From Actinomycetota bacterium (GTDB taxonomy: Bacteria; Actinomycetota; Thermoleophilia; BMS3ABIN01), in the NCBI GenBank assembly GCA_016235065.1, contig JACRMB010000010.1, positions 6,281 to 70,280 on the forward strand: a stretch of DNA of 64,000 bases, written 5' to 3'. The position numbers were made by a program, and so were the translations under genes. The notes beneath the pieces were generated by a model that was given only the letters and a program-made list of their open reading frames with translations, ran no database searches and was not told the DNA's origin. Below, piece after piece: positions 1-27,825 of this stretch; within the stretch, counting starts at the first letter, position 1; every line of letters begins with the position of its first letter.

Positions 1-915
1 GCCGGCGATCGGAGCGGTGTTGCCAACGTTATCGGCGACCGAGCCACCGATCACATGTGAACCAAGGGCGAGACCTGTCACAGGACAGCTGGCACCGTTT
101 GTCGTAACGGTGCAACCCGAAAGCGGGGTGCCGTCAAGTGAGACAACGACGGAAGACGTGTTCACGTTCGTTCCGCTGTCGTTGTAGCTCACGCTGATCG
201 TGGTCGAACCCGTATTGATCGTTCCCGAAGGAGTCACGCTCGTGACTACCGGAGGAGCAGTGTCAGGTGCCGGAGGGACCAGCCACCCGCTGGCCGAAGT
301 CCAGGGCCTATTGTCACGGCCGCCGGTGAAGACGTAAGCGGCGTCGCAGACACCGTCGACGTTGACGTCGTTACATCCCTCGGCGGGAGTGTCGAACTTC
401 TCCCAGTAGTTGCCGCTCACCGGGCTCGCCTGGTCGAAGACGTTACCCGAACCTCCCGATGCGTACGCCGGGATGTTCGCGACCGTCGTGTTGTTGTTGA
501 AGATCTTGCTGTTGTTCGAGAAGAGGACGTAGAACCCGTAATTGAAATTGCTGACGGTAAGGTTCTTGACGGTGACGTTGTTCCGGACGGAAAGTGACAC
601 ACCCGTTGTGAATCCGCCGGAGCCTGTTACCGAGTGACCGTTACCGTCGAGAGTGATCCCGTCGGCGGTTATCTCGATACCGTTTTTACCGGCCGCGTTG
701 ATGTCGGCGGTAAGGGTACAAGTCTTGGTGGAGGCGTTCCATGTACCTACAGTGGAACAGTCACCACCAGTCGCACTGGCGCTGATTACCTTAGCGGCAG
801 CCGCCTGCGCATCCTGAGTAAATGCGAGGTTGAGAAGGAGTACTGCTAGAACCAAAAAACCAAGAACAAGAAAACCTTTCGATGACGCACTGAGTCCATG
901 CTGTTTTGCCTTCAC
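1..915 (-). CDS. Secreted right-handed beta-helix repeat protein (NosD / pectate-lyase-like). N-terminal part only; the C-terminus lies beyond the window start.
   Basis: Manual translation of the minus strand from a GTG at 915, preceded by AGGAAAGGA. It gives MKAKQHGLSASSKGFLVLGFLVLAVLLLNLAFTQDAQA (signal peptide), then repeated G-x-x-I/V-T and NNxTVxNLTVSNF parallel beta-helix units. The ORF track missed it because the start is GTG. Confidence 0.55.
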   Translation of the reverse strand, partial: MKAKQHGLSASSKGFLVLGFLVLAVLLLNLAFTQDAQAAAAKVISASATGGDCSTVGTWNASTKTCTLTADINAAGKNGIEITADGITLDGNGHSVTGSGGFTTGVSLSVRNNVTVKNLTVSNFNYGFYVLFSNNSKIFNNNTTVANIPAYASGGSGNVFDQASPVSGNYWEKFDTPAEGCNDVNVDGVCDAAYVFTGGRDNRPWTSASGWLVPPAPDTAPPVVTSVTPSGTINTGSTTISVSYNDSGTNVNTSSVVVSLDGTPLSGCTVTTNGASCPVTGLALGSHVIGGSVADNVGNTAPIAG

Positions 916-1661
916 CCGTGTTCCTTTCCTATTTTAAATGCTGGGGGGGGGTATAAAAATGTTCTTGATTTTAGCGTGTCATTCTTTTTATGTAAATACT
1001 TTCACAAAGAGCATCTGCCTGGTTTCCTTCCAGTTCTGGCGGTATATAAGCGATTCAGAGGCATGGTCATCCATTACGGCCAACTGGCAGAGGGTCCCGG
1101 CTTTATTCTGTAACCATGTCGGCCCCCTTTTGCCCGGCTGCCCGCAAACCCGCTTATTTGCAGCAATTCATATATGTGCATCTCAGTCCCATCCACTCGC
1201 AGGTCAAGCCCTGTTCGTTTCAGAAAACGACTCTTTTGATGAATCAAGGCCTGGTTTTTACCGATTTCAGTGGCTTTTGCAGCCCTGGAAAAAATAGGGG
1301 AATTCCCCTAGAAGGATTTCTGCCGTTTTTAGCCCCCGGAGCCTCCAATCACCTGAAATTGGAGGCGGCAGCCAAATCGCCCCAAGCTGGGCTAGTTTGT
1401 CATGAAGGCATATACCTGTCGCTATCAGTGTTCTCTTCTGTCAACGGTGCTCTGGTATCGCTGAAGGCATTTTCCACCTTACGGCGGCGCTTCTTGGAGG
1501 TGCTGTTCTTGGGGTATTTCTGCGAGGAGTTCCAGCTTGTCACGCCGACACTATCTTGTTATATCTACCAGATCTGTCCACCAGAGGCGGCGGCTCCAGA
1601 ATCGTATGGCCTTTGCGCTACTCTCTGCCGCGACGGTCCGCGACTAAGTGCTGCTGTGTTG

Positions 1662-2033
1662 CTACCCGCCACCACTGCGGGCAGCTTCGATCGCAGCCTT
1701 GAGATCGCGCGGCAGAGGCTTATCGGAGACCACAAAATCATAGAGCTTATCAGCAAGCTCCGGAGAGCGGTAGAGCTCCCGCTGGAGTCCGCGCTGGCGG
1801 AACTCGAAGAAGTGTTCGGGCTTTACCCGCAACGATCGGGCAATCGCCCGGATCACTTGATCCGCGGGCACAGGCCTGGTGCCGCAGGCGAGATGGTTGA
1901 GGTATCCGGCTGAGAGCTTCGTGCGGGTCGCAAGTCTTCGGTAACTAATTTTTCGGAGTTCCATCAGCTGGCGCAAAGTCTCGGGAAAGGGTCTGATCGA
2001 ATTCGGGATATCCTTCGATGCGTCAGTAATCAT
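1662..2033 (-). CDS. XRE-family helix-turn-helix transcriptional regulator
   Basis: 123 aa with the HTH segment LRKISYRRLATRTKLSAGYLNHL. Its ATG overlaps the trpA stop (ATGA), and GAGGTG lies upstream. Confidence 0.7.
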   Translation of the reverse strand: MITDASKDIPNSIRPFPETLRQLMELRKISYRRLATRTKLSAGYLNHLACGTRPVPADQVIRAIARSLRVKPEHFFEFRQRGLQRELYRSPELADKLYDFVVSDKPLPRDLKAAIEAARSGGG

Positions 2034-2812
2034 TTAAGCACCTCATTGACCTCATTCAGAAAATTGGTAATAGCGCGGCCCGCGGTGTCAATGTCCGGCG
2101 CCTCGCTCACTATGTTGATAAGACGGCTGCCTATGATAACTCCGTCGGCGTATCTGGCAACCTCTGCGGCGTGCTCCGGAGTAGATACGCCGAAGCCGAT
2201 AGCAAGTGGCACGTCGGTCCGCGCGCGTACCCTGGCGATGAAACCAGGCAGCTGATCCGAGAGCGACGTGCGTGCTCCCGTAACACCTGCCACCGATACA
2301 CAATAGATAAACCCGGACGCCGCCTTCGCGATAAGCTCGATCCGCTCGTCGGGGCTGGTCGGCGCCACCAGGAGGATAGGATCGACTCCCCTCGCCCGGC
2401 AGGCATCGATAAAATCTGTGCCTTCGTCTACCGGCAGATCCGGGACTATCAGTCCGTCGACACCAGCGGCAGCGGCCGCTTCGATGAAGCGGTCCTGGCC
2501 GTAGGCGAAAACGCAATTGTAGTAGACCATGAGGACGACCGGTATCCGGGAGCTGAACTCAGAGGCCAGCTGCAGGACGTCATCGGGCGTGACGCCCTGT
2601 TCCAGCGCTTGCTGGGTCGACGCCTGCACGACCGGCCCGTCGGCCAGAGGGTCAGAGAATGGCACCCCCATCTCGATCATGTCGGCGCCGCCGGAGATAA
2701 AGGCTTCGAGCACATGGCGGCATTCGTGCATGGTCGGATAACCGCCTGTGGTATAGGGCATCAGCAACGCTTTTTTCCCGCTTCCGCGGAATATCTCTTC
2801 GAGCCGGCTCAT
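2030..2812 (-). CDS. trpA: Tryptophan synthase alpha subunit
   Basis: 260 aa with a typical TrpA N-terminus ([22 protein letters not shown]) and TIM-barrel pattern. ATGA overlap with the trpB stop. Confidence 0.95.
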
Positions 2813-3987
2813 TCCATTATCCCCAGTGCCCGCGCCGCCTGGTGCACATCCTTGTCGCCGCGGCCGCTCAGATTGACGATCACCGCGTCATCCGCGCTGT
2901 AATCAGCCGCGTGCTTCGTGATCCAGGCAATCGCGTGGGAACTCTCCAGTGCCGGTATTATCCCCTCGGTTTCAGACAGCATAGTGAAGCAGGCCAGGGC
3001 CTCCGCGTCGGTGACAGAGTCGTAACGGACCCTGCCCTCGTCGTGCAGCCACGAGTGTTCCGGGCCCACTCCGGGGTAATCCAGGCCCGCCGAGATAGAG
3101 TGTGCTTCCAGGATCTGCCCATAAGCATCCTGAAGGATATAAGACATGGAACCGTGCAGGACTCCCCTATGGCCCCGTTCGATGGAAGCGCCGTGCTTGC
3201 CGCTGTCGAGTCCCTCCCCCGCCGCCTCGACTCCGACCATGGGCACATCGTCATCCAAAAATGCTGCAAACAGTCCCATTGCGTTGGAACCACCGCCGAC
3301 ACAGGCGATAAGCTCGGCCGGCAGCCTGCCCTCAGCCTCCAGGAACTGGGCGCGTGCCTCTCGGCCGATGACACTCTGGAAATCACGCACCAGCGCTGGA
3401 TACGGAGCCGGACCGGCCACCGAGCCGATGACATAATAAGTATTCTCCACGTTGGTGACCCAGTCGCGGATAGCCTCGTTCATGGCATCCTTGAGTGACT
3501 GGCTGCCGGAGCTGACCGGGATGACCTCTGCGCCCAGCAGCTTCATGCGCACAACGTTCAGCTCCTGCCTGGCGATATCCTTGATCCCCATGTAGATGGC
3601 GCAGGGGATGCCGAACAGCGCCGCAGCCGTGGCCGTCGCCACTCCGTGCTGGCCGGCTCCGGTCTCGGCGATGATCCGCTTCTTCCCCATCTCAGCCGCC
3701 AGCAGCAGCTGCCCTACAGTGTTGTTGATCTTGTGGGCGCCGGTATGGCAGAGGTCCTCACGCTTGAGATAGATGCGCGGGCCGCCCAGTTTTTCCGTCA
3801 GCCGCGACGCAAAATACAGCGGCGTCGGCCGCCCGACAAAGTCTTTTAGCAGCGATTCCAGTTCGGTCTTAAAGCCAGGATCGTCTTTGAGCCGCTCATA
3901 TGCGGCGGTTAGCTCGTCGAGAGCCGGAATCACCGTCTCGGGTACATAGCGGCCGCCGTAGGGGCCGAATCTGGCCTGTATGGTCAT
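2809..3987 (-). CDS. trpB: Tryptophan synthase beta subunit
   Basis: 392 aa. [11 protein letters not shown] and HTGAHKINN (PLP lysine motif) are present. ATGA overlap with trpF. Confidence 0.95.
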
Positions 3988-4628
3988 GTAACCTCTTTCC
4001 TGATTCTTTCAAACAGAAGCCGAAGCTGTCCGTGATCCTTGATTCCAGGAGCCGACTCGACCCCGCTGGATACATCGACGGCGAAAGGCGCCGCAGCCCG
4101 AACTGCATCCATGATGTTCAGGGGATTCAGGCCGCCGGCCAGAATCAGCCTCGCGCCCCGGAAGTCTTCGTCGAGCGCGGCGGGCAGGCTCCAGTCGAAT
4201 GTCTCTCCGCTGCCGCCCCGGCGCTCAGGATGATAAGTATCCAGCAGAATGTAATCGGTGTCAAACTGGACAACGCGCTCCAGCGACTCCGGACCCGATA
4301 CCGCCAGCGCCTTGATCACCAGCACGCCGGTGTGCTCCCGAACCTCGCGGCATTCCTCCGGGCTCTCGTCGCCGTGCAGCTGAACCGCCGTCAGCCCGCA
4401 GGCCTCCACCGCTCCGGCTATCACATCCGCCCTGGCGTTGACGAAGACACCAACGCGGTCTACGCCTGCAGGCGCCGACGCCAGCACTTCAGATGCCCGC
4501 GCGATACTCACCTGGCGCGGACTTTCCGGAGCGAAGATCACACCGAGCGCCCAGGCTCCCAGTTCCACAGCAAGCGCCGCGTCCTCAGACCGGGTGAGCC
4601 CACAGATCTTGACCTTCACATCCGCCAT
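3984..4628 (-). CDS. trpF: Phosphoribosylanthranilate isomerase
   Basis: [12 protein letters not shown] start, recomputed to the ATG at 4628 (the track's ORF extends to 4709). C-terminus GGLNPLN matches the TrpF family. Confidence 0.85.
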
Positions 4629-4633
4629 TGCCC

Positions 4634-5614
4634 TTACCTGTACTTCCGCGTCTGGAAGATGATTATCATGACAACAGAAACCACCGCCATGAACATGAGG
4701 CTCCCCCACATCCAGACACGGCTGCCCACGGGCAGTTCGGCGAAGTTCATCCCCCAGAAACCGGTGATGAAGGTGAGTGGCATGAAGATGGTGGCAACCA
4801 GGGTCAGCCGCTTCATTATCTCATTGAGCCGGTTGGAGACCGCTGAAAGATGCACGTCCAGGGAACCGGTAAGGATATCCCGGTAGGAATCGAGCATGTC
4901 TGACAACCGGATCAGGTGGTCGTAGACGTCGCGCAGATAAGGCAGTGTCTCACTGGTCACCAGCGGGAAGTCCCGGGATGTCATCTCGTTGATCGCCTCG
5001 CGCAGCGGGCCGGCTTTCTTGCGGAAATGGATCAGCTCGCGCTTGAAGTCGAAGATGCGGTGCACCGTCGTCTCGTCCGCCTTGGGATCCACCACCGCGT
5101 CCTCAAGGGCATCGAGCTCGTCCTCGACCCCGTCCACGGTCTCTATGTATCCGTCTACCACCGTGTCCATCAGGTAGTAGGCCAGCATGTCCGAGCCGCA
5201 ACTCATGATCCGGGACCGGCTGTCGGCGTCCTTCCAGACCCTCTGGATCGCGCGCGAGTCACCGCGATGTACCGACACCAGGAAATTACGGCCGACAAAG
5301 AGGTCGATCTCTTCCCACTTTAGAGACAGGCTGCCACCGCTGACGTCAGCGGTTACCGCGTGCATCACCAGGAAGAAGTGGTCATCGTAAGGTTCGACCT
5401 TGGATCGCTGTCCGTCGTCCTTGGAGGCGTCCTCCAGGGCCAGCTCGTGGAAATTGAAGGGCGGTGCTCCCAGAAGGTCGCGGTCTTCCTGGGTCAGGGG
5501 ACCGGCCATGTCGAGCCAGACCAGCCCGTCTCCCCTGCCAGCAAACTCGACCGCCTCGGCAACAGATACGGTTTTGACGCCCGCTTCTTTTGAGCCGCAC
5601 ACCTTGGCCTGCAT
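4634..5614 (-). CDS. corA: CorA magnesium/cobalt transporter
   Basis: GMN signature (FWGMNF) and two C-terminal TM helices. The ATG at 5614 is preceded by AGGTGG. The track's longer ORF starts at a GTG at 5623. Confidence 0.85.
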   Translation of the reverse strand: MQAKVCGSKEAGVKTVSVAEAVEFAGRGDGLVWLDMAGPLTQEDRDLLGAPPFNFHELALEDASKDDGQRSKVEPYDDHFFLVMHAVTADVSGGSLSLKWEEIDLFVGRNFLVSVHRGDSRAIQRVWKDADSRSRIMSCGSDMLAYYLMDTVVDGYIETVDGVEDELDALEDAVVDPKADETTVHRIFDFKRELIHFRKKAGPLREAINEMTSRDFPLVTSETLPYLRDVYDHLIRLSDMLDSYRDILTGSLDVHLSAVSNRLNEIMKRLTLVATIFMPLTFITGFWGMNFAELPVGSRVWMWGSLMFMAVVSVVMIIIFQTRKYR

Positions 5615-5647
5615 GTCCGCCACCTGTCCGTCGGCTGGGGTTTACCG

Positions 5648-5678
5648 GAAACAAACAAGCCCGACTGACGCCGGGCTG
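5648..5678 (-). terminator. Intrinsic terminator downstream of the L,D-transpeptidase gene
   Basis: Hairpin agcccg-actgacg-ccgggct followed on the minus strand by a U-rich tract (tgtttgttt). Confidence 0.4.
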
Positions 5679-5769
5679 AAATAAGTCGAACTTCCTGATC
5701 TGTCCTTCCAGACACAATAGCCGCTACACCTGATTGCCACAACGGCCACCGCAACCTGCCTGCTGCCAG

Positions 5770-7371
5770 CTACTCGTGAATATGCAGCGGTGTCCCGATC
5801 GGGGTCCAGTCATAGACATGCTTGGCTGTATCTACGGGCAGACCGACACAGCCATGGCTGGAACGTTGCCCGAAGGCGGTCGCCCAGTAATTTCCATGCA
5901 TCGTATAATCACCCTTGAAAACCATGACCCAGGGAACCTTCGGGGCGAAATATCCCGGGCCCCTCATGTCAATCGCGGACATCTTGGCGTAAATCGTGTA
6001 GTCACCCAACGGAGTGTCGGTGCCGGAATTGCCGGTCGAGCATAGGAAAGACTCCACTGCCACGCCATTTTCGTAAAGCGTCACAACCTGTTCTGAGATA
6101 TCCACGTCGATGGACTTGGCGGGAGCCGTCGTGAAAGTTGCTGTGGAATCTGCTTCCAGGAAACCTCCGGAGACTCCGCGCAGCGCCTGCGGACCGCTCT
6201 TGATGCTGATGGTAACGTCCTGCAGATGGTCCCAGGCGTTGGTCGGCTTGAACTCCAGACGGTTGGGAGCCGGCCAGGAGAAAGTCCCGTCGACCTTTGG
6301 CTCGACCGTGACCAGGGTGCGGGCGAGATCCTGGTTGGAAACAGGCTCGCTGAAGATTATCGCCGGATTCGCCTCAGTGCTGGCGCCCGAGGTCCCATCG
6401 GTAGGCTCGAAGACGAGTTGAAGCGCCGGCGCGGTCTTGACCGCGGATGCCAGTGGCGCCTTGAGCTCCCTGCCGTTGCTCGAAGTCGCACCGGTTATCT
6501 TCAGCGGGAATTCCTTGCCCTGTTCGAACTTGGCCAGGGCGATATGGGCAACACGGCCGCCCTCTTCAAGCCGTGAAGTACTCTGGATGCCTTCGAGCGT
6601 GTAATCGAAATCGCTGATCGGGATGTTCCATTCGAGGGTCACTTCTTCACCATACTTGACCTTGAGCCCATCCTTGGGAATTATCGGCATCGGAGTGGTC
6701 ACTGTCGTGAAGGTGACAGTCTGTTCCACCGGCGCATCGGCTACTCCGGACATCCCGAACTCCTTGACCGTGCCGGTGATAGTGATCGTATATTCAGCGT
6801 CGGCGACAAGGGGATTGGAGCCATCCTCAAGAACAAACCGGCCGTCAGTCAGGTGACCGCTCAGCAGGCGTTCGTTCTCACGAGTGCCGTCGGGGGCGAT
6901 CCGTGCTTCCTTGACCGCGACCGTCGCAAGGCTGGCGCCCCATCGGCTGGTCGAGATCTCCAGGCCGCTGTCGTCAGGGATTATCTCAGAGGAACCATCG
7001 CCGGGACTCACAGAGATCCGCGGAGGCAGGACGACCACGAGCAGCAGTGTCGCCACGACTGCAAGCGCCGCGACTCCACCGGCGATGATGACCGCGAGTT
7101 TTATGCGTGACGCCAGCTTGCCAACCTGCGGCGCCGTCAATTCCTTGGTTGCTTCCCTGCCCAGCTTGACCGTCCCGTAGTCTGATTGAGATTGGCACTC
7201 TTCTTGTAACTCATATTTATCCCCAATAGCCGGCAGACTAACCTTAACCTGGGGATTCGCCTCCGTCCGATTCGATGCGGCGCAACCAGAACAGCGCCGA
7301 TTCGGGACGAATAGAGGGAGTATAGCAAAGAGTAGAAGTGTGTTTCCAGAGCAATTTCTCATATTTCTCAT
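5770..7371 (-). CDS. L,D-transpeptidase (YkuD) with N-terminal signal/TM and Ig-like repeat region
   Basis: C-terminal catalytic motif HGNYWATAFGQRSSHGCVGLP, and an N-terminal hydrophobic segment. AAGGGGG lies upstream. Confidence 0.8.
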   Translation of the reverse strand: MRNMRNCSGNTLLLFAILPLFVPNRRCSGCAASNRTEANPQVKVSLPAIGDKYELQEECQSQSDYGTVKLGREATKELTAPQVGKLASRIKLAVIIAGGVAALAVVATLLLVVVLPPRISVSPGDGSSEIIPDDSGLEISTSRWGASLATVAVKEARIAPDGTRENERLLSGHLTDGRFVLEDGSNPLVADAEYTITITGTVKEFGMSGVADAPVEQTVTFTTVTTPMPIIPKDGLKVKYGEEVTLEWNIPISDFDYTLEGIQSTSRLEEGGRVAHIALAKFEQGKEFPLKITGATSSNGRELKAPLASAVKTAPALQLVFEPTDGTSGASTEANPAIIFSEPVSNQDLARTLVTVEPKVDGTFSWPAPNRLEFKPTNAWDHLQDVTISIKSGPQALRGVSGGFLEADSTATFTTAPAKSIDVDISEQVVTLYENGVAVESFLCSTGNSGTDTPLGDYTIYAKMSAIDMRGPGYFAPKVPWVMVFKGDYTMHGNYWATAFGQRSSHGCVGLPVDTAKHVYDWTPIGTPLHIHE

Positions 7372-8696: not shown

Positions 8697-9044
8697 ATGT
8701 CAGTGAATGACAAGGTTGAGATCCCGGTATTCGGGTCACGGTACCTGGACTCCTGCTCCGGCGGTTGAGGCCCCAGCTGGTCTCTGGAAGAGATCACGGA
8801 GCATATCAACAGGCAGCTTGACCAGGATTTTGGCGGGACCGCCCAAATCCGGTATGTGGATTTCGATTCGCCGGAACTCTCGGAATTCCCGGAAGTCTAT
8901 CAGCGGGTGGCTGTTGACCGCGACCTTGAACCCGGCACGATCCTGTTCAGGGGTGAACTGGTGCCGATATGGGATGTCCAGTACAACCGCCTGACCGAAG
9001 AGTTCGTGAAGATGGGCGCAGAGCCCGTCCGCAAGGCTTCGTAG
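8697..9044 (+). CDS. Candidate 115-aa protein with one in-frame TGA at 8766-8768. It is either a selenoprotein or an interrupted pseudogene.
   Basis: AGGAGG then a 6-nt spacer then ATG at 8697. MSVNDKVEIPVFGSRYLDSCSGG-TGA-GPSWSLEEITEHINRQLDQDFGGTAQIRYVDFDSPELSEFPEVYQRVAVDRDLEPGTILFRGELVPIWDVQYNRLTEEFVKMGAEPVRKAS-stop, in a single frame. A 6-bp stem-loop starts 11 nt after the TGA. Confidence 0.35.
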
Positions 9045-9163
9045 TACCTGCTCCAGCAGAATGAATAAAGGACGGCCATGGCGCCGTCCTTTTTTTGTCC
9101 GTTTCGAATGCATCCGCCGCCAGGCCAACAATCGGCCACCAGAGCGTCGCGCACCGGCCGCGG

Positions 9164-10138
9164 CTACTTCGCCAGCACTCCCAGCAGCTGCCACAGATCC
9201 AGGTCGAGCTGCTTGGTCTTCGCCGCGACTTCCTCCAGCGGGGTCAGGGCGATGCCGCCGTCGATCCAGCCTGCCAGCCGGCCGCTGCCGCCTCCAGCCA
9301 GGAACTCGACTGCCGCCGCTCCCAGCCGGCTCGCCAGTATCCGGTCGAAACTGGATGGCGCTCCACCGCGCTGTACGTGCCCAAGGATCGTGACCCTAAG
9401 TTCATAGCCGATCTCGTCCTCACGCGACCGGAAATATTCCATGCATCGCTGGGCGTTGTTACGGGCGCCGTCGGTGACGACAGCCAGCGCGTAGCGCTTG
9501 CCACGGGCGTGGGCCGCCGCCAGCTGCTGCTCCACCTCGGCGGGCTCGATATCGAACTCGGGCGTAACGATGACGTCGGCGCCCCCGGCCAGCCCCGCCG
9601 CCAGCGCCAGGTAGCCGCAGCTCTTCCCCATGACCTCGATGAGAAAAGCCCGGTGGTGCGACTCGGCGGTAGTGCGGATGCGGTCGATCGACTGGATTAT
9701 TATGTCGAGCGCCGTGTCGACGCCGATGGTGATGTCCGAGCCGTGGAGATCGTTGTCGACAGTGGAGGCGACCCCGGCCACAGCCAGTCCCATCCTGCCA
9801 AGCTCATGGGCGCCCGCCTGGGAGCCGTTGCCGCCGATGACGATCAGGCCATCGATGTTCTCGCGCCGCAGGTTCTCCACCGCCCGGCCCCTGGCAGCCT
9901 CGCTCTCGCGGAACTCCCGGCTGCGGGCCGTCCCCAGGAAGGTGCCGCCCAGGTGCAATATCTCGCTGACGTCACGGTTCCCCAGGGGGATGACGTCGCC
10001 TTCGATCAGGCCCTCGAAGCCGTTGCGGACCCCGAACATCTCCATGCCGATGTCGGTGCCCACCCGCACGATAGCCCGGACCGCCGCGTTCATCCCCGGC
10101 GCGTCGCCGCCACTGGTGACGACTGCTATGCGTTTCAT
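9164..10138 (-). CDS. pfkA: ATP-dependent 6-phosphofructokinase. Atypical GGNGS in place of GGDGS.
   Basis: 324 aa with MKRIAVVTSGGDAPGMNAA, TVDNDL and HVQRGG. GGAGG Shine-Dalgarno upstream. Confidence 0.9.
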   Translation of the reverse strand: MKRIAVVTSGGDAPGMNAAVRAIVRVGTDIGMEMFGVRNGFEGLIEGDVIPLGNRDVSEILHLGGTFLGTARSREFRESEAARGRAVENLRRENIDGLIVIGGNGSQAGAHELGRMGLAVAGVASTVDNDLHGSDITIGVDTALDIIIQSIDRIRTTAESHHRAFLIEVMGKSCGYLALAAGLAGGADVIVTPEFDIEPAEVEQQLAAAHARGKRYALAVVTDGARNNAQRCMEYFRSREDEIGYELRVTILGHVQRGGAPSSFDRILASRLGAAAVEFLAGGGSGRLAGWIDGGIALTPLEEVAAKTKQLDLDLWQLLGVLAK

Positions 10139-20853: not shown

Positions 20854-21081
20854 ATGTCAAGAGTATGTACAGTCTGCGGCAAGAAGCCCGGCTACGGAAA
20901 CAACCGCAGCCACTCCAACAGAGCGACCCGTCGCCGGTTCAATCCGAACCTGCAGAAGATTCGCATCGTCCAGAACGGCACTCCGACCCGCGCCTATGTC
21001 TGCGCCAAGTGCATCAGCGCCGGCAAGGTACAGAAAGTCGCGGTAGGCAAATCCAGCGAAGCTGCAAAGGAAGCCGTTTAG
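20854..21081 (+). CDS. rpmB: 50S ribosomal protein L28
   Basis: [35 protein letters not shown]; AAGGA upstream. The track's ORF begins at 20671 but the ribosomal protein starts at an internal ATG. Confidence 0.9.
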
Positions 21082-21121
21082 AAGAAGCGTCTGGATAACA
21101 GGCGACATCTGATTCAGGCAC

Positions 21122-21152
21122 CTAAGCCTCCTCCGGGAGGCTTTTTGTTTTC
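21122..21152 (+). terminator. Intrinsic terminator of rpmB
   Basis: aagcctcc-tccg-ggaggctt followed by tttgttttcc. Confidence 0.6.
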
Positions 21153-21321
21153 CTCTGCCAGGCTCCTTGATTATGAACACACTGGCGTGCCGTCGCAATA
21201 AATAAGGACATTCCCCGAGCCGCATAAGCTACTTATTCGCATTTCCGGACCGAAACTTAAAATAGATTGCCTGTCATAGCTGGCTCCAAAGAGCCGGCAC
21301 GGTTCGAGAAAAGGGGTTGAG

Positions 21322-21708
21322 ATGGAATCAGAATTTTCGTTTACATTAGGTGTCGTACCAACTCTACTGATCAGTCTTGCGGTTTATGTGTACTACTCAT
21401 ACTCGTTGATGGTGATCGCCCACAAGACGGACACTGGTAGCGCCTGGATGGCGTGGGTGCCGATCCTCAACCTGCTGCTCATGTGCAGGGTCGCCGGAAG
21501 GCCCGGATGGTGGCTGGTGCTGATGTTAATACCCCTGGTTAACATTGTCATGATGCTTGTCGTCTGGATGGGCATCGCCGAGGCCAGAGGCTTCGCCAGC
21601 TGGTGGGGCATCATGATGATCGTCCCGTTCGTCAATGTCATCGTTCCGGGATACCTGGCTTTCGCTGAAGGGCATGGGGTGTCGCACGGAACCCCGATCC
21701 ATCACTGA
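21322..21708 (+). CDS. Small 3-TM membrane protein, paralog A of a tandem triplicated family
   Basis: 128 aa. Conserved WVPILN, AEARGF.SWWG and VPFVN..PGYLAF motifs. AAGGGG Shine-Dalgarno. Confidence 0.65.
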   Translation: MESEFSFTLGVVPTLLISLAVYVYYSYSLMVIAHKTDTGSAWMAWVPILNLLLMCRVAGRPGWWLVLMLIPLVNIVMMLVVWMGIAEARGFASWWGIMMIVPFVNVIVPGYLAFAEGHGVSHGTPIHH

Positions 21709-22005
21709 AAACCGGGCGGTATCGCACTGGTTGCGGTTCGCTCATTGATACAGGAACGCAAACGAGCATCGCGAGAATCAGCATCAGGCAGCACGCGAGA
21801 CCCCCCATCCGGGGGGTTTCGCGCTGCCAGGCCCGCAAATCCCTGATGCCGGCTGGTGCCAATCGGGCGGCATCTTCGCCAGTCCAGCAGCATCATCGCC
21901 TGAAACGGCGACCTCCATGCAGGTTATTGAGCATCTACTGCGAAAAGAAGAATAGAAAAGCAGCAAAAGACTTGAATCAATTACAGAAAACGGAAAGGAG
22001 TGGTA

Positions 22006-22353
22006 ATGGAAGCTGAATTCTCTTTGGGCGGAGGACCGGTTCTTATCCTCTGGGCAGCGATCTACGTCTACATGGCGTTCTCGCTGATGACCATCGCCAA
22101 CAAGACCGGCACCGAGAATGCCTGGTTCGCGTGGGTGCCGATCCTTAATGTCATCCTTATGCTTCAGATCGCGGACAAACCGATATGGTGGATCATCCTC
22201 TTTCTGATCCCGATCGTGAACATCGTCATCGCCATCATGGTATGGATGGCGATCGCCGAGGCCAGGGGTTTTCCAAGCTGGTGGGGCATCCTGATGATCG
22301 TCCCGTTCGTCAACTTCATCGTGCCCGGATACCTGGCTTTCGCCGAACCCTAA
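22006..22353 (+). CDS. Small 3-TM membrane protein, paralog B
   Basis: 115 aa with the same motifs. AAAGGAG then 5 nt then ATG. Confidence 0.7.
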   Translation: MEAEFSLGGGPVLILWAAIYVYMAFSLMTIANKTGTENAWFAWVPILNVILMLQIADKPIWWIILFLIPIVNIVIAIMVWMAIAEARGFPSWWGILMIVPFVNFIVPGYLAFAEP

Positions 22354-22639
22354 GCCGGACAACCGTCACAACGACGCTGCCCATATAAACTACGTTTGAA
22401 CGGAAAAGCCGCCATCCGGGGGCTTTTCCGCTTTCTGCGTCAGTAGATCTCCACCAGCCAGCCGGCGTCCTGCCGGCAATAATCCAGTCATACGGACCAC
22501 CCGGTTATCGGATGAACTGAATCCCACAGTCCTGCTCAATTATCAGCCCACGATGCCGACAGAGGGTTAAGCCAGAACCAGCCGAAGAGTGGCATGCTCC
22601 ACGCTTCACAACAGATCAATAAAAAAAGGGGTGTTCTTT

Positions 22640-22981
22640 ATGAGGTCTTCAGGAGGATCCGATTTTATCATCATCGCCGGGCTGATTCTGTATGCCTGGC
22701 TTACTTGCTGCCTGTACCGGATAGCAGTGAAGGTAGGCATGCATAATGCCAGCCTTGCCTTCATCCCCTTAGTAAACATGATGCTGATCTGCGCCATGAT
22801 AGACAAGCCTGCGTGGTTTGCAATATTGTTTTTTATTCCGGTGGTTGGCTTTTTCTGGAGCATAATCGTGTGGATGAGACTCAGTGAGGCTGTCGGGCAC
22901 TCACAATGGTGGGGGCTGGCGATGTTGTTGCCTGTCTTCAACCTGGCCATACCCGGATACCTGGCGTTCTCCAGATCCTGA
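22640..22981 (+). CDS. Small 3-TM membrane protein, paralog C
   Basis: 113 aa with the same motifs. AAGGGGTG Shine-Dalgarno. Its 3' flank of about 30 nt nearly duplicates that of paralog B. Confidence 0.65.
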   Translation: MRSSGGSDFIIIAGLILYAWLTCCLYRIAVKVGMHNASLAFIPLVNMMLICAMIDKPAWFAILFFIPVVGFFWSIIVWMRLSEAVGHSQWWGLAMLLPVFNLAIPGYLAFSRS

Positions 22982-23079
22982 GCCGGACAGCCGTCACTAC
23001 GACGTCTGCCAAAATAGGGTTTCATCTTTTGTTCGAAGGGGAGAGTAACGCGAGACAACATCTGTCTGACGGGAGGAAT

Positions 23080-23568
23080 ATGAACTTCAGGCTACATAAG
23101 TCGGCTGCGTCAATGGTGCTTCCCATTTTGCTGGTGGCAGTCGCCATCACTATCGCTGGTTGCGGCAGCGAAGGCACAACATCAGTGGAAACGAAAACCG
23201 CTACGGCCAGAACCGTGCCTGTGCGGACTACCACGGTGAACACAGGGACGGTGACAGTCACGGAAGCAGACGAGGGATCTACGGTGAACCTGGCTGCAGG
23301 AGCTAAGCTTCAGGTCTTACTGAAAAGCAATCCAACAACCGGATATCACTGGGTCGCTTCGGCGGACCAGGGCTGTCTGCAGCAGGCGGGGGATGCCGTC
23401 TACACGCCTGATCCGAACCCTGAAGGCATGGTCGGCACCGGAGGGAAGGACACCTTCACATTCAATGCCGTCTCGCCGTGCCAGGCCTCCCTGTTGATGA
23501 ACTACCTGAGTCCGGCCAATCAGCCGTCGGAAACGACCTTCAGCATCACCGTCAATATCACGGCATAG
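23080..23568 (+). CDS. Chagasin-family (MEROPS I42) cysteine-peptidase inhibitor lipoprotein
   Basis: Lipoprotein signal (LLVAVAITIAGC), NPTTGYHW motif and GMVGTGG motif. GGGAGGA Shine-Dalgarno. Confidence 0.65.
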   Translation: MNFRLHKSAASMVLPILLVAVAITIAGCGSEGTTSVETKTATARTVPVRTTTVNTGTVTVTEADEGSTVNLAAGAKLQVLLKSNPTTGYHWVASADQGCLQQAGDAVYTPDPNPEGMVGTGGKDTFTFNAVSPCQASLLMNYLSPANQPSETTFSITVNITA

Positions 23569-23603
23569 CATGTTGGCATGAAAGCCGGAAGCGCCACCAA
23601 AAA

Positions 23604-23626
23604 AGCCCCCGTGACGGGGGCTTTTT
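23604..23626. terminator. Bidirectional intrinsic terminator (A-run, gcccccgtgacgggggc, T-run)
   Basis: Perfect 7-bp GC stem flanked by A6 and T5. It lies between the convergent chagasin-like gene and ribH. Confidence 0.6.
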
Positions 23627-23689: not shown

Positions 23690-24166
23690 CTACTTCATTG
23701 TCTTTACCAGCTGGGCCATCTCGATGGCGCCGGCTGCTGCCTGCCAGCCCTTGTTGCCGGCCTTGGTGCCAGCCCGTTCGACGGCCTGCTCGATGGAATC
23801 GGTTGTGAGCACACCCATGGCTACGGGCACCTTGGTATCCATGGCGATCTTAGCGATGCCCTTGGATACCTCACCGGCCACATAATCGAAATGAGGCGTG
23901 CCGCCACGGATGACCGCGCCCAGGGCGATCACGGCGTCGTACTTGCCGCTCTCGGCCATCTTGGCCGCCACCAGCGGGATCTCGAAGGCACCGGGGACCC
24001 AGGCTACCTCGATAGCGCCCTTGCCGGCTCCGTGCCTGATGATGCAATCCACAGCGCCGTCCAGCAGGCGCAGAGAGATGAACTCGTTGAATCGGGCGAC
24101 GACGATGCCGAACTTCAGGCCCTTGGCATCGAGCATCCCTTCGTAACTCTTGTATTTTTCCGCCAT
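23690..24166 (-). CDS. ribH: 6,7-dimethyl-8-ribityllumazine synthase
   Basis: 158 aa with a typical RibH sequence ([11 protein letters not shown]...WVPGAFE). Confidence 0.95.
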
Positions 24167-26332: not shown

Positions 26333-27457
26333 CTACCATTCCTCCTGAGTGGTGTAAGCGGTTATCAGCACGTCATCGCCGACCGCCTTGTGTTTGACCC
26401 TGTAAAGCGGCGTCGCCTCGCCCACCAGCCGGAAACCGCGCCCTTCGACCGGAGTGCGCGCATCCTTGCCGCCGATGAATTTCGGCGCTACAAAAGTCAT
26501 GACCTTGTCGATAGCCCCGGACTCCACGAAAGAAGCCGCAAGCGTCGGTCCACCTTCAAGCAGGAGGCTGAGGGCAGCGGGCTCGCGGGAGCCAAGATGC
26601 AGCAGCGCTTCGCCTACGTTCACCTGGCTGTCCAGGGTCCCGGTCCGGACGACCTCGACTCCGGCGTCCTTGAGCGCCTTCACTTTTTCCTGGGTTGCGG
26701 CCTCGGTGACGAAGACCAGCGTCGCTACTTCACCGGCGGTCTTCACAAGCTGGCTCTCCAGGGACAGTCCAGCCTTCGAATCGAACACGACCCTTAGAGG
26801 TTGCTTGTAATCGCCGGGTATGCGGCAGGTGAGCATGGGATCGTCTATCTGGGCGGTGCCGCTGCCACAGGCGATGGCGTCGACCTCGCCCCGGAGCGCA
26901 TGTACCAGCGCCCGGCTTTCCTCGCCGGATATCCACTTGGAATCGCCAGTCGAGGTCGCTATCTTGCCATCCAGGCTCATGGCGCTCTTGAAGATGACAA
27001 AAGGCAGCCCGGTAACCGCATGCTTGCGGAAGGCTTCGTTCTGGGAACGCGCCCGGGCGGCCAGCAGACCGTCGAGCACTTCGACTTCGATGCCAGCCTC
27101 ACGCAGCTGCTCCAGGCCCTTGCCATTGACCTTCGATGACGGATCGAGAGAAGCGACGACGACCCGGGCGATGCCCGCATCGATCAGCGCGTTGCTGCAT
27201 GGGCCTGTGCGGCCATGATGGCAGCAGGGCTCGAGGGTCACGAAGATAGTGGCACCCCTGATGTCGCCGGTTGCCGATTTGATCGCGGCCACCTCGGCAT
27301 GATCGTCTCCGGCACGCTTGTGATAGCCCTCGCCGATGACTTCCTCGCCACGAGCGATCACAGCACCCACGGTAGGATTGGGGCTGGTCTTGCCCCTGGC
27401 CAGATCGGCCAGGTTGAGCGCCCTTTGCATGAAACTTATGTCGAGTCCGGTAACCAT
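26333..27457 (-). CDS. ribD: Bifunctional riboflavin biosynthesis deaminase/reductase
   Basis: CMP/dCMP deaminase motif (HAE...PCxxC) plus a reductase domain, 374 aa. Confidence 0.9.
   Translation of the reverse strand: MVTGLDISFMQRALNLADLARGKTSPNPTVGAVIARGEEVIGEGYHKRAGDDHAEVAAIKSATGDIRGATIFVTLEPCCHHGRTGPCSNALIDAGIARVVVASLDPSSKVNGKGLEQLREAGIEVEVLDGLLAARARSQNEAFRKHAVTGLPFVIFKSAMSLDGKIATSTGDSKWISGEESRALVHALRGEVDAIACGSGTAQIDDPMLTCRIPGDYKQPLRVVFDSKAGLSLESQLVKTAGEVATLVFVTEAATQEKVKALKDAGVEVVRTGTLDSQVNVGEALLHLGSREPAALSLLLEGGPTLAASFVESGAIDKVMTFVAPKFIGGKDARTPVEGRGFRLVGEATPLYRVKHKAVGDDVLITAYTTQEEW

Positions 27458-27654: not shown

Positions 27655-27825
<171 letters not shown>

Follow-up and report, generated by a model that had tools for sequence, protein, structure and literature searches.

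The I42 (chagasin) family is defined by three loop motifs, L2, L4 and L6 (PMC2607524). Chagasin and the amoebiasins, which are protozoan, have no signal peptides and regulate C1 peptidases of the organism itself (PMC5014320), and in Pseudomonas the chagasin-like lipoprotein Cpi1 acts against plant enzymes (bioRxiv 10.64898/2026.06.02.729523). Here we describe a locus in a 64-kb stretch of DNA (contig JACRMB010000010.1; the whole stretch is hereafter called the window), in which three tandem paralogs of a small membrane protein, A, B and C, precede the gene of an I42 lipoprotein on the same strand. This arrangement had been noted in a sequence-only reading, and the open reading frames were recovered just where it had placed them. 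The host is an uncultured Thermoleophilia-like actinobacterium. A metagenome-assembled genome (MAG) recorded as 'Actinobacteria bacterium' encodes a protein identical to B, and the nearest named relatives are Thermoleophilia MAGs. On balance, we read the locus as four small genes that encode envelope proteins of two catalogued families and lie in a rearrangement-prone gap between rpmB and a riboflavin operon. The genes add new members to known families, their arrangement is lineage-specific, and the locus is ordinary in kind.

The I42 lipoprotein

Profile search assigned the lipoprotein to Pfam Inhibitor_I42 (PF09394) with 72.3 bits (cutoff 27.2, E = 4e-20) over profile positions 1-91 of 91. 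Its best sequence match among solved structures was the Pseudomonas aeruginosa ICP (2wgn, E = 1.5e-11), with amoebiasin and chagasin next. In the AlphaFold2 model, residues 55-162 mostly had a predicted local distance difference test score (pLDDT) above 90, with values of about 70 at residues 111-120, and Foldseek matched the model to EhICP2 (E = 5e-10; target-normalised TM-score, TMt, 0.85) and chagasin (TMt 0.81). The polypeptide comprises a signal peptide (residues 1-27), Cys28, a Thr-rich disordered linker to about residue 55 and an immunoglobulin (Ig)-like domain (57-161). Lipoboxes follow the rule [LVI][ASTVI][GAS]C, and the Sec-type signal peptide ends in such a motif, MNFRLHKSAASMVLPILLVAVAITIAG-C28; among 11 aligned relatives, at least 90% keep G27 and C28, and 11/11 keep G29. 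Loop L2 (NPTTGYHW, residues 84-91) and loop L4 (MVGTGG, residues 117-122) are both intact, and G119, G121 and G122 are invariant in the I42 alignment. The profile, the 2wgn match, the predicted fold and the lipobox IAGC together bear out the original assignment of this protein as a chagasin/I42 lipoprotein. The exact 162-aa protein had no database record, and the public gene call begins at a Met further downstream, giving 151 aa; we preferred the 162-aa form because it has a GGGAGG Shine-Dalgarno and a complete signal peptide. Profile search of genome contigs with the I42 alignment returned no further contig.

We also looked for a possible target in the 64-kb window, where a papain phmmer search gave no match at E <= 10 and the PROSITE signatures of C1 peptidases were absent, in agreement with the earlier statement that no cognate C1 peptidase is nearby. 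A 'CGSCW' string at 8950-9243 (minus strand) lies in a non-coding frame with no papain match, and was dismissed as chance. By analogy with chagasin, the NPTTG and GxGG loops of the Ig-like domain would plug the active-site cleft of papain-like (C1) peptidases, while the protein itself would be lipidated at Cys28 and tethered by the Thr-rich linker to the outer face of the cytoplasmic membrane. Since the window holds no C1 peptidase, the targets of the lipoprotein would most likely be foreign enzymes, as for the Pseudomonas lipoprotein Cpi1.

The DUF5684 membrane proteins

All three membrane proteins matched PF18936 (DUF5684) above the Pfam gathering cutoff of 27.4 bits, A with 50.8, B with 52.5 and C with 38.7 bits, which places them in a catalogued but uncharacterised family. 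A literature search for DUF5684, PF18936 and IPR043739 found no paper mentioning them in the library searched, so the earlier statement that the function of the family is unknown stands. No significant match was obtained for the paralogs in NCBIfam, PHROGs or PADLOC. A, B and C align over their full length with 36 invariant columns (identity 66% for A/B, 36% for A/C and 40% for B/C), and the motifs quoted in the sequence-only reading are present in them. At least 1392 word-index matches to a DUF5684 paralog were found, and PF18936 is carried by each of the 120 that were listed; at E <= 1e-3, an exhaustive search yielded 3216 cluster representatives (50% identity) among 1.84 billion. Members from Acidobacteriota, Patescibacteria and WOR-3 are 64-69% identical to B over about 100 residues, with the shared family motifs AW(I/V)PIxN, KPxWW...IPxVN, AEARG and VPGYLA. 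By these figures, the family is not large, yet it is strikingly conserved. B is the copy nearest the family consensus, is retained in all clade relatives and is 100% identical to the database homolog P0001.

The AlphaFold2 model of B, built with 122 sequences, had a pLDDT of 90.7 and comprised four helices (9-33, 39-55, 62-86 and 92-112), not the three transmembrane (TM) helices of the sequence-only reading. Helices 2-4 are each kinked at a near-invariant proline (P45, P69 and P100). Helix 3 matches helix 4 as an internal repeat (hhalign P = 1.1e-5), with a weaker match to helix 2 (P = 0.014), and the repeat unit of helices 2-4 reads (K)P-x-WW-x3-4-(I/V)P-x-V-N. By this unit, each of the three helices of the predicted fold would have both a proline kink and an Asn within the bilayer, and the P, N and W positions are near-invariant in the DUF5684 alignment. 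Neither the model nor the profile resembled any solved structure (profile search, Foldseek) or viral structure. On this basis, the DUF5684 protein would be a compact bundle of four membrane helices, whose buried Pro, Asn and Trp positions most likely form its functional core. The very strongly conserved buried polar residues suggest a membrane module that is self-contained, probably oligomeric, and either channel-like or a platform for docking; it would work without a dedicated partner, the gene standing by itself in nearly every other genome. The additional copies at this locus may be specialised variants.

Several features vary within the family. Proteins of the A type end in a tail ...HG.SHG(T/R)PIHH (window 21667-21705), missing from the B and C types and also seen in P0012, P0019, P0021, P0071, P0097, L002_A and L004_A; this His-rich tail could be a metal-binding or recognition motif. 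Long members carry additional domains, among them zinc ribbons, T2SSB-like and CdsD_C-like domains and TPR. They add C-terminal double zinc ribbons, and some of them also an extra TM helix and a T2SSB-like or CdsD_C-like domain. In one fusion type a signal peptide and a Cys-rich ectodomain of about 480 aa accompany the DUF5684 core, with a double zinc ribbon at the C terminus; in a second type the core is joined by a zinc ribbon, an additional TM helix and a T2SSB-like or CdsD_C-like domain (large fusions in L011 3081-5228, L020, L014, P0150, P0211, P0221 and others). The topologies that these large fusions imply conflict with a simple four-pass model. The partners bear on topology, not on function. 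Database entries label some DUF5684 members 'signal peptidase I'; no peptidase family was among the fusion partners reported for long members, and we therefore regard this label as unsupported.

Pairing of the two families and age of the copies

We compared the order of genes 3′ of rpmB among related loci. The related Thermoleophilia genome L002 (GCA_030650885.1) has A, B, C and I42, with a gap of 15 nt between C and I42. Among metagenome contigs, L004 has A, B, a DUF4389 membrane protein and I42; L007 has a 3′ remnant of A, then B, an internally deleted I42 remnant and an intact I42 gene; and L092 has B, the B terminator and I42. C is absent from L007 and L092. In L003 (GCA_054606915.1), an 1806-aa TPR protein is followed by one A-type copy, with no I42. 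The DUF4389 protein of L004 (195 aa, 6536-7123) stands in C's place and ends 1 nt 5′ of the I42 start. In L007 the I42 remnant (2156-2376) lies just 5′ of the intact gene (2461-2943) and the last codons of paralog A alone survive, around 1400-1427, so that these remnants show duplication and decay at this spot. The L003 protein is nearly all TPR and its gene (279-5699, minus strand) lies between rpmB and the single DUF5684 gene, a further sign that the gap between rpmB and ribH takes insertions. The spot is thus dynamic, with B and I42 constant in the clade and C dispensable.

Beyond the clade, a metagenome scan with the DUF5684 alignment gave 80 loci, whose six-frame open reading frames were scanned with hidden Markov models (HMMs) from our own alignments. 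A single DUF5684 copy was found in 79 of them, and I42 only in the closest relative, L007. The pairing of the two families implied by the sequence-only reading is therefore not family-wide. A census of neighbour families round 76 DUF5684 genes showed no recurrent partner; DUF1203 was seen nine times, Peripla_BP_4 six times, and Peptidase_S9 and EF-P four times each, repeats that probably reflect synteny among related Acidobacteria. We lean towards lineage-specific synteny, rather than a dedicated two-component system, as the basis of the DUF5684-I42 adjacency, and we hold the explanation as a whole, a self-contained membrane module next to a surface-anchored inhibitor, with moderate confidence.

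Three sets of observations weigh against this explanation. The first concerns the lipoprotein, in which the RPW/F motif of loop L6 is replaced by SPA (YLSPAN, compared with YRRPWE of 2wgn); close relatives have SPA, TPT, TPV or TPD, and only the Pro is kept. As the W93A mutation of chagasin lowers its affinity for cathepsin L 100-fold (PMC2607524), the inhibitory potency or specificity of the window protein may differ.

The second concerns topology. The markers clash, with signal-peptide homologs (108/281 DUF5684 homologs) pointing to an N-out orientation and C-terminal zinc-ribbon fusions, in which the ribbons come directly after helix 4, pointing to C-in, and Lys plus Arg are nearly even over the three loops, at 1.5-2 each, in every DUF5684 subclass. 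A four-helix protein of labile or dual topology, comparable to EmrE or Fluc, with an Asn-lined oligomeric pore and A, B and C as a hetero-oligomer, would account for these contradictory markers and this charge balance, and the size of about 115 aa, the four helices, the near-invariant Pro and Asn motifs within them and the repeat of helices 3 and 4 would fit it as well. We consider it unlikely, however. Neither profile nor Foldseek searches linked DUF5684 in sequence or fold to SMR, Fluc or any protein of solved structure, no opposite charge bias was seen among A, B and C, most genomes have a single copy, no transport-related genes were found among DUF5684 neighbours, and topology here is inferred from hydropathy and charge counts only. 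A bolder version, in which DUF5684 is a new class of small, very highly conserved membrane channel or carrier with a triplicated Pro-x-x-Asn helix unit and variable or dual orientation, its hetero-oligomeric paralogs working in this clade with the surface-anchored I42 inhibitor, is in our view quite improbable.

The third is the closeness of the two families within the clade. B lies within about 1.3 kb of I42 in 5/5 distinct clade genomes at dS of roughly 0.7-1.5, and C adjoins I42 at a 15-nt gap in L002, so an in-clade functional link is possible. DUF5684, or at least C, might then form a functional surface module with the lipoprotein in this clade, the membrane protein docking or positioning the inhibitor, or being shielded by it from foreign cysteine peptidases. 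In keeping with this, no terminator separates C from I42 in the window, the DUF4389 protein that closely precedes I42 in L004 is another small membrane protein, and B stays close 5′ of I42 in the window/L001, L002, L004, L007 and L092 despite saturated synonymous divergence. Yet I42 is found in 0/79 of the more distant DUF5684 loci, distant C-type homologs and L003 have no adjoining I42, and a further I42 homolog, the more distant L091, has no DUF5684 gene beside it. L007 and L092 lack C, yet their I42 leader stays conserved, and what stands just 5′ of I42 differs among genomes, being C, DUF4389, an I42 remnant or the B terminator. Moreover, the entire rpmB-ribH region is syntenic, so conserved adjacency weighs little, and we judge a surface module to be a rather doubtful alternative to lineage-specific synteny.

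The age of the copies was assessed against L002. The window proteins are 89% (A), 80% (B) and 76% (C) identical to their L002 orthologs, and because each paralog has such an ortholog, the triplication is older than the split of these genomes and not recent. The Nei-Gojobori ratio of nonsynonymous to synonymous substitution (dN/dS) between the window and L002 was 0.16 for A, 0.19 for B and 0.17 for C, and that of the I42 gene was 0.45 against L002 and 0.27 against L007, which indicates that all four genes are held by purifying selection and that I42 evolves fastest. The sequence-only reading had instead proposed a recent duplication of B and C from the 3′ flank that they share. This flank is real: GCCGGACARCCGTCACNACGACG occurs in the 64-kb window only at 22354-22376 and 22982-23004, with a chance expectation of 0 matches. 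A recent tandem duplication of B and C, or of the whole array, would explain why a 23-nt flank is common to both (21/23 identical) and why a 98-nt stretch at the 3′ ends has 73% identity. Within the window, however, B and C are only 40% identical in residues and 51% in nucleotides, they are saturated at synonymous sites (proportion of synonymous differences, pS, 0.67), and GCA_030650885.1 holds separate orthologs of them, which makes a recent origin very unlikely. The element lies directly 3′ of the B stop codon in five related genomes (including L001, L002, L007 and L092) but 3′ of C only in the window lineage, the C of L002 being without it; the flank of C would thus have come secondarily from B, or would be a functional element.

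The 23-nt element can form a 4-bp stem (CGUC/GACG). In L007 an 11-nt insertion changes the frame while the element stays intact, which argues that it is conserved as nucleic acid; a read-through peptide from the shared flank was ruled out by the same insertion. Separately, in the last 60 nt or so of A and B, which encode a shared motif, nucleotide identity reaches 86-96%, compared with about 65% elsewhere, a pattern of short gene-conversion patches. Gene conversion and the 23-nt element make the old copies look younger.

Transcription units, setting and known systems

The features of the locus are collected in Table 1. A G-rich Shine-Dalgarno lies 5-10 nt 5′ of every start codon, and the A-B and B-C spacers measure 297 and 286 nt, with terminator-like hairpins 3′ of A and 3′ of B, so the description of each paralog as having its own Shine-Dalgarno and a hairpin-bearing spacer of about 290 nt was accurate. 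An alternative GTG start of B at 22000 would give 117 aa. The two hairpins are 76% identical, and a GCGAAACCCCCC...GGGGGGTTTCGC hairpin, the same as that 3′ of A, follows A and/or B in L004 and L007. No strong hairpin was found 3′ of C (z = +0.3), and without a terminator there transcription can run on into the I42 gene, which has a U-tailed terminator hairpin at its own 3′ end. The I42 leader (GTTTCATC...GAGAATAAC...GGGAGG-ATG) is kept in the window, L092 and L007 though the upstream sequence differs, being C, a terminator or an I42 remnant. Conservation whatever lies upstream suggests an own promoter, and by sequence comparison the leader probably carries both a promoter and a ribosome-binding site, the promoter function being inferred. 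An Rfam scan of the region gave chance-level sub-threshold matches only, with no known RNA element in the spacers of about 290 nt.

Table 1. Positions of genes and sequence elements at the locus; hairpin z-scores are against shuffled sequences
Feature	Position in window	Strand	Basis or remark
rpmB (ribosomal protein L28)	20854..21081	+	Upstream syntenic anchor; open reading frame; Ribosomal_L28 at the same position in L001, L002, L004
Intrinsic terminator of rpmB, hairpin and T run	21124..21153	+	dG -18.4 kcal/mol, z = -3.4
Promoter-like site 5′ of A, TTCGCA-16-TAAAAT	21236..21263	+	Consensus match only
DUF5684 paralog A, 128 aa, conserved C-terminal tail ...HGVSHGTPIHH	21322..21708	+	PF18936, E = 2.6e-13
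Terminator-like hairpin 3′ of A, without U tail	21787..21828	+	dG -37.7 kcal/mol, z = -6.0
DUF5684 paralog B, 115 aa from ATG	22006..22353	+	PF18936, E = 7.9e-14
23-nt conserved element, directly 3′ of B stop codon	22354..22376	+	Sequence comparison with relatives
Terminator-like hairpin 3′ of B	22400..22432	+	z = -4.0
DUF5684 paralog C, 113 aa, divergent, presence varies among relatives	22640..22981	+	PF18936, E = 1.6e-9
23-nt element, second copy, 3′ of C stop codon	22982..23004	+	Sequence comparison
Conserved leader of I42 gene, GTTTCATC...GAGAGTAAC...GGGAGG	23017..23079	+	Alignment with L092, L007
I42 (chagasin-family) lipoprotein, 162 aa	23080..23568	+	Profile, structure match, predicted fold
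Hairpin between A and T runs, bidirectional terminator of convergent I42/ribH	23600..23626	.	Folding
ribH (lumazine synthase)	23690..24166	-	Downstream syntenic anchor; open reading frame; DMRL_synthase in L001, L002, L003

The GC content is 0.53-0.54 over window positions 21001-23000, compared with about 0.61-0.65 in the flanking kilobases, and the dip coincides with the membrane-protein genes and their long spacers. This lower GC at 21-23 kb, the variable copy number and the small multi-helix products could be taken for holin-like or toxin-like proteins of a mobile element, phage or defence island. Against such an origin, no DUF5684 relatives were found in 2.9 million viral contigs, phage records or plasmid records, PHROGs and PADLOC gave no significant match, housekeeping genes flank the locus, whose position is syntenic across genomes, and the genes are under purifying selection. 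We accordingly rejected a phage, holin or defence identity of DUF5684 on the viral, phage, plasmid, PHROGs and PADLOC negatives, and we rate a mobile-element origin as extremely unlikely. On the other side of the locus, an FMN riboswitch (RF00050, 111 bits; window 27700-27820, minus strand) lies 5′ of ribD (26333-27457, minus strand) and is the expected regulator of the flanking ribD-ribE-ribBA-ribH operon.

In itself the locus adds little, because both families are already catalogued and Pseudomonas is known to have lipid-anchored inhibitors of the chagasin type. It does illustrate how old paralogs can mimic a recent duplication through gene conversion and a conserved 3′ element. DUF5684, with cross-phylum identity of about 65-70% over some 100 residues and a confidently predicted fold without solved relatives, is a good candidate among the 'known unknowns' for experimental work. 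Members of this family usually occur as one copy per locus (79/80), often with an N-terminal signal peptide, whereas the window has three copies, none with a signal peptide, including the ...GTPIHH-tail subtype (A) and a divergent subtype, C (36-40% identical). Like DUF5684, the SMR/EmrE and Fluc/CrcB proteins have about 110-130 aa, four helices, a weak positive-inside bias and occasional tandem paralogs; we found no sequence or structural similarity to them, however, and the likeness is one of analogy only, not of membership.

For the lipoprotein, the predicted fold superposes on chagasin of Trypanosoma cruzi and on the amoebiasins EhICP1/2 at TMt 0.79-0.86 with a root-mean-square deviation of 2.1-3.3 Å, and the L2 and L4 motifs are present. 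In contrast to these protozoan proteins, it is predicted to be exported and lipid-anchored, with no C1 peptidase nearby in the window. It resembles Cpi1, Cip1 and the P. aeruginosa ICP (MEROPS I42), which likewise have a signal peptide and a lipobox Cys, followed by an Ig-like I42 domain with NPTTG and GxGG loops. It differs from the Pseudomonas proteins in that it and its closest relatives have SPA at L6, not RP[WF], in its Thr-rich linker of about 27 residues after the lipid anchor, and in its host, an actinobacterial lineage of environmental metagenomes for which no eukaryotic host is known. An I42 protein without RPW/F, in a soil or sediment actinobacterium and with no C1 peptidase nearby in the window, would broaden the notion that free-living bacteria protect their surface against papain-like peptidases of foreign origin. 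By analogy, the window protein would then act as the Pseudomonas I42 lipoproteins do, as a bacterial membrane-anchored inhibitor directed against foreign papain-like peptidases.

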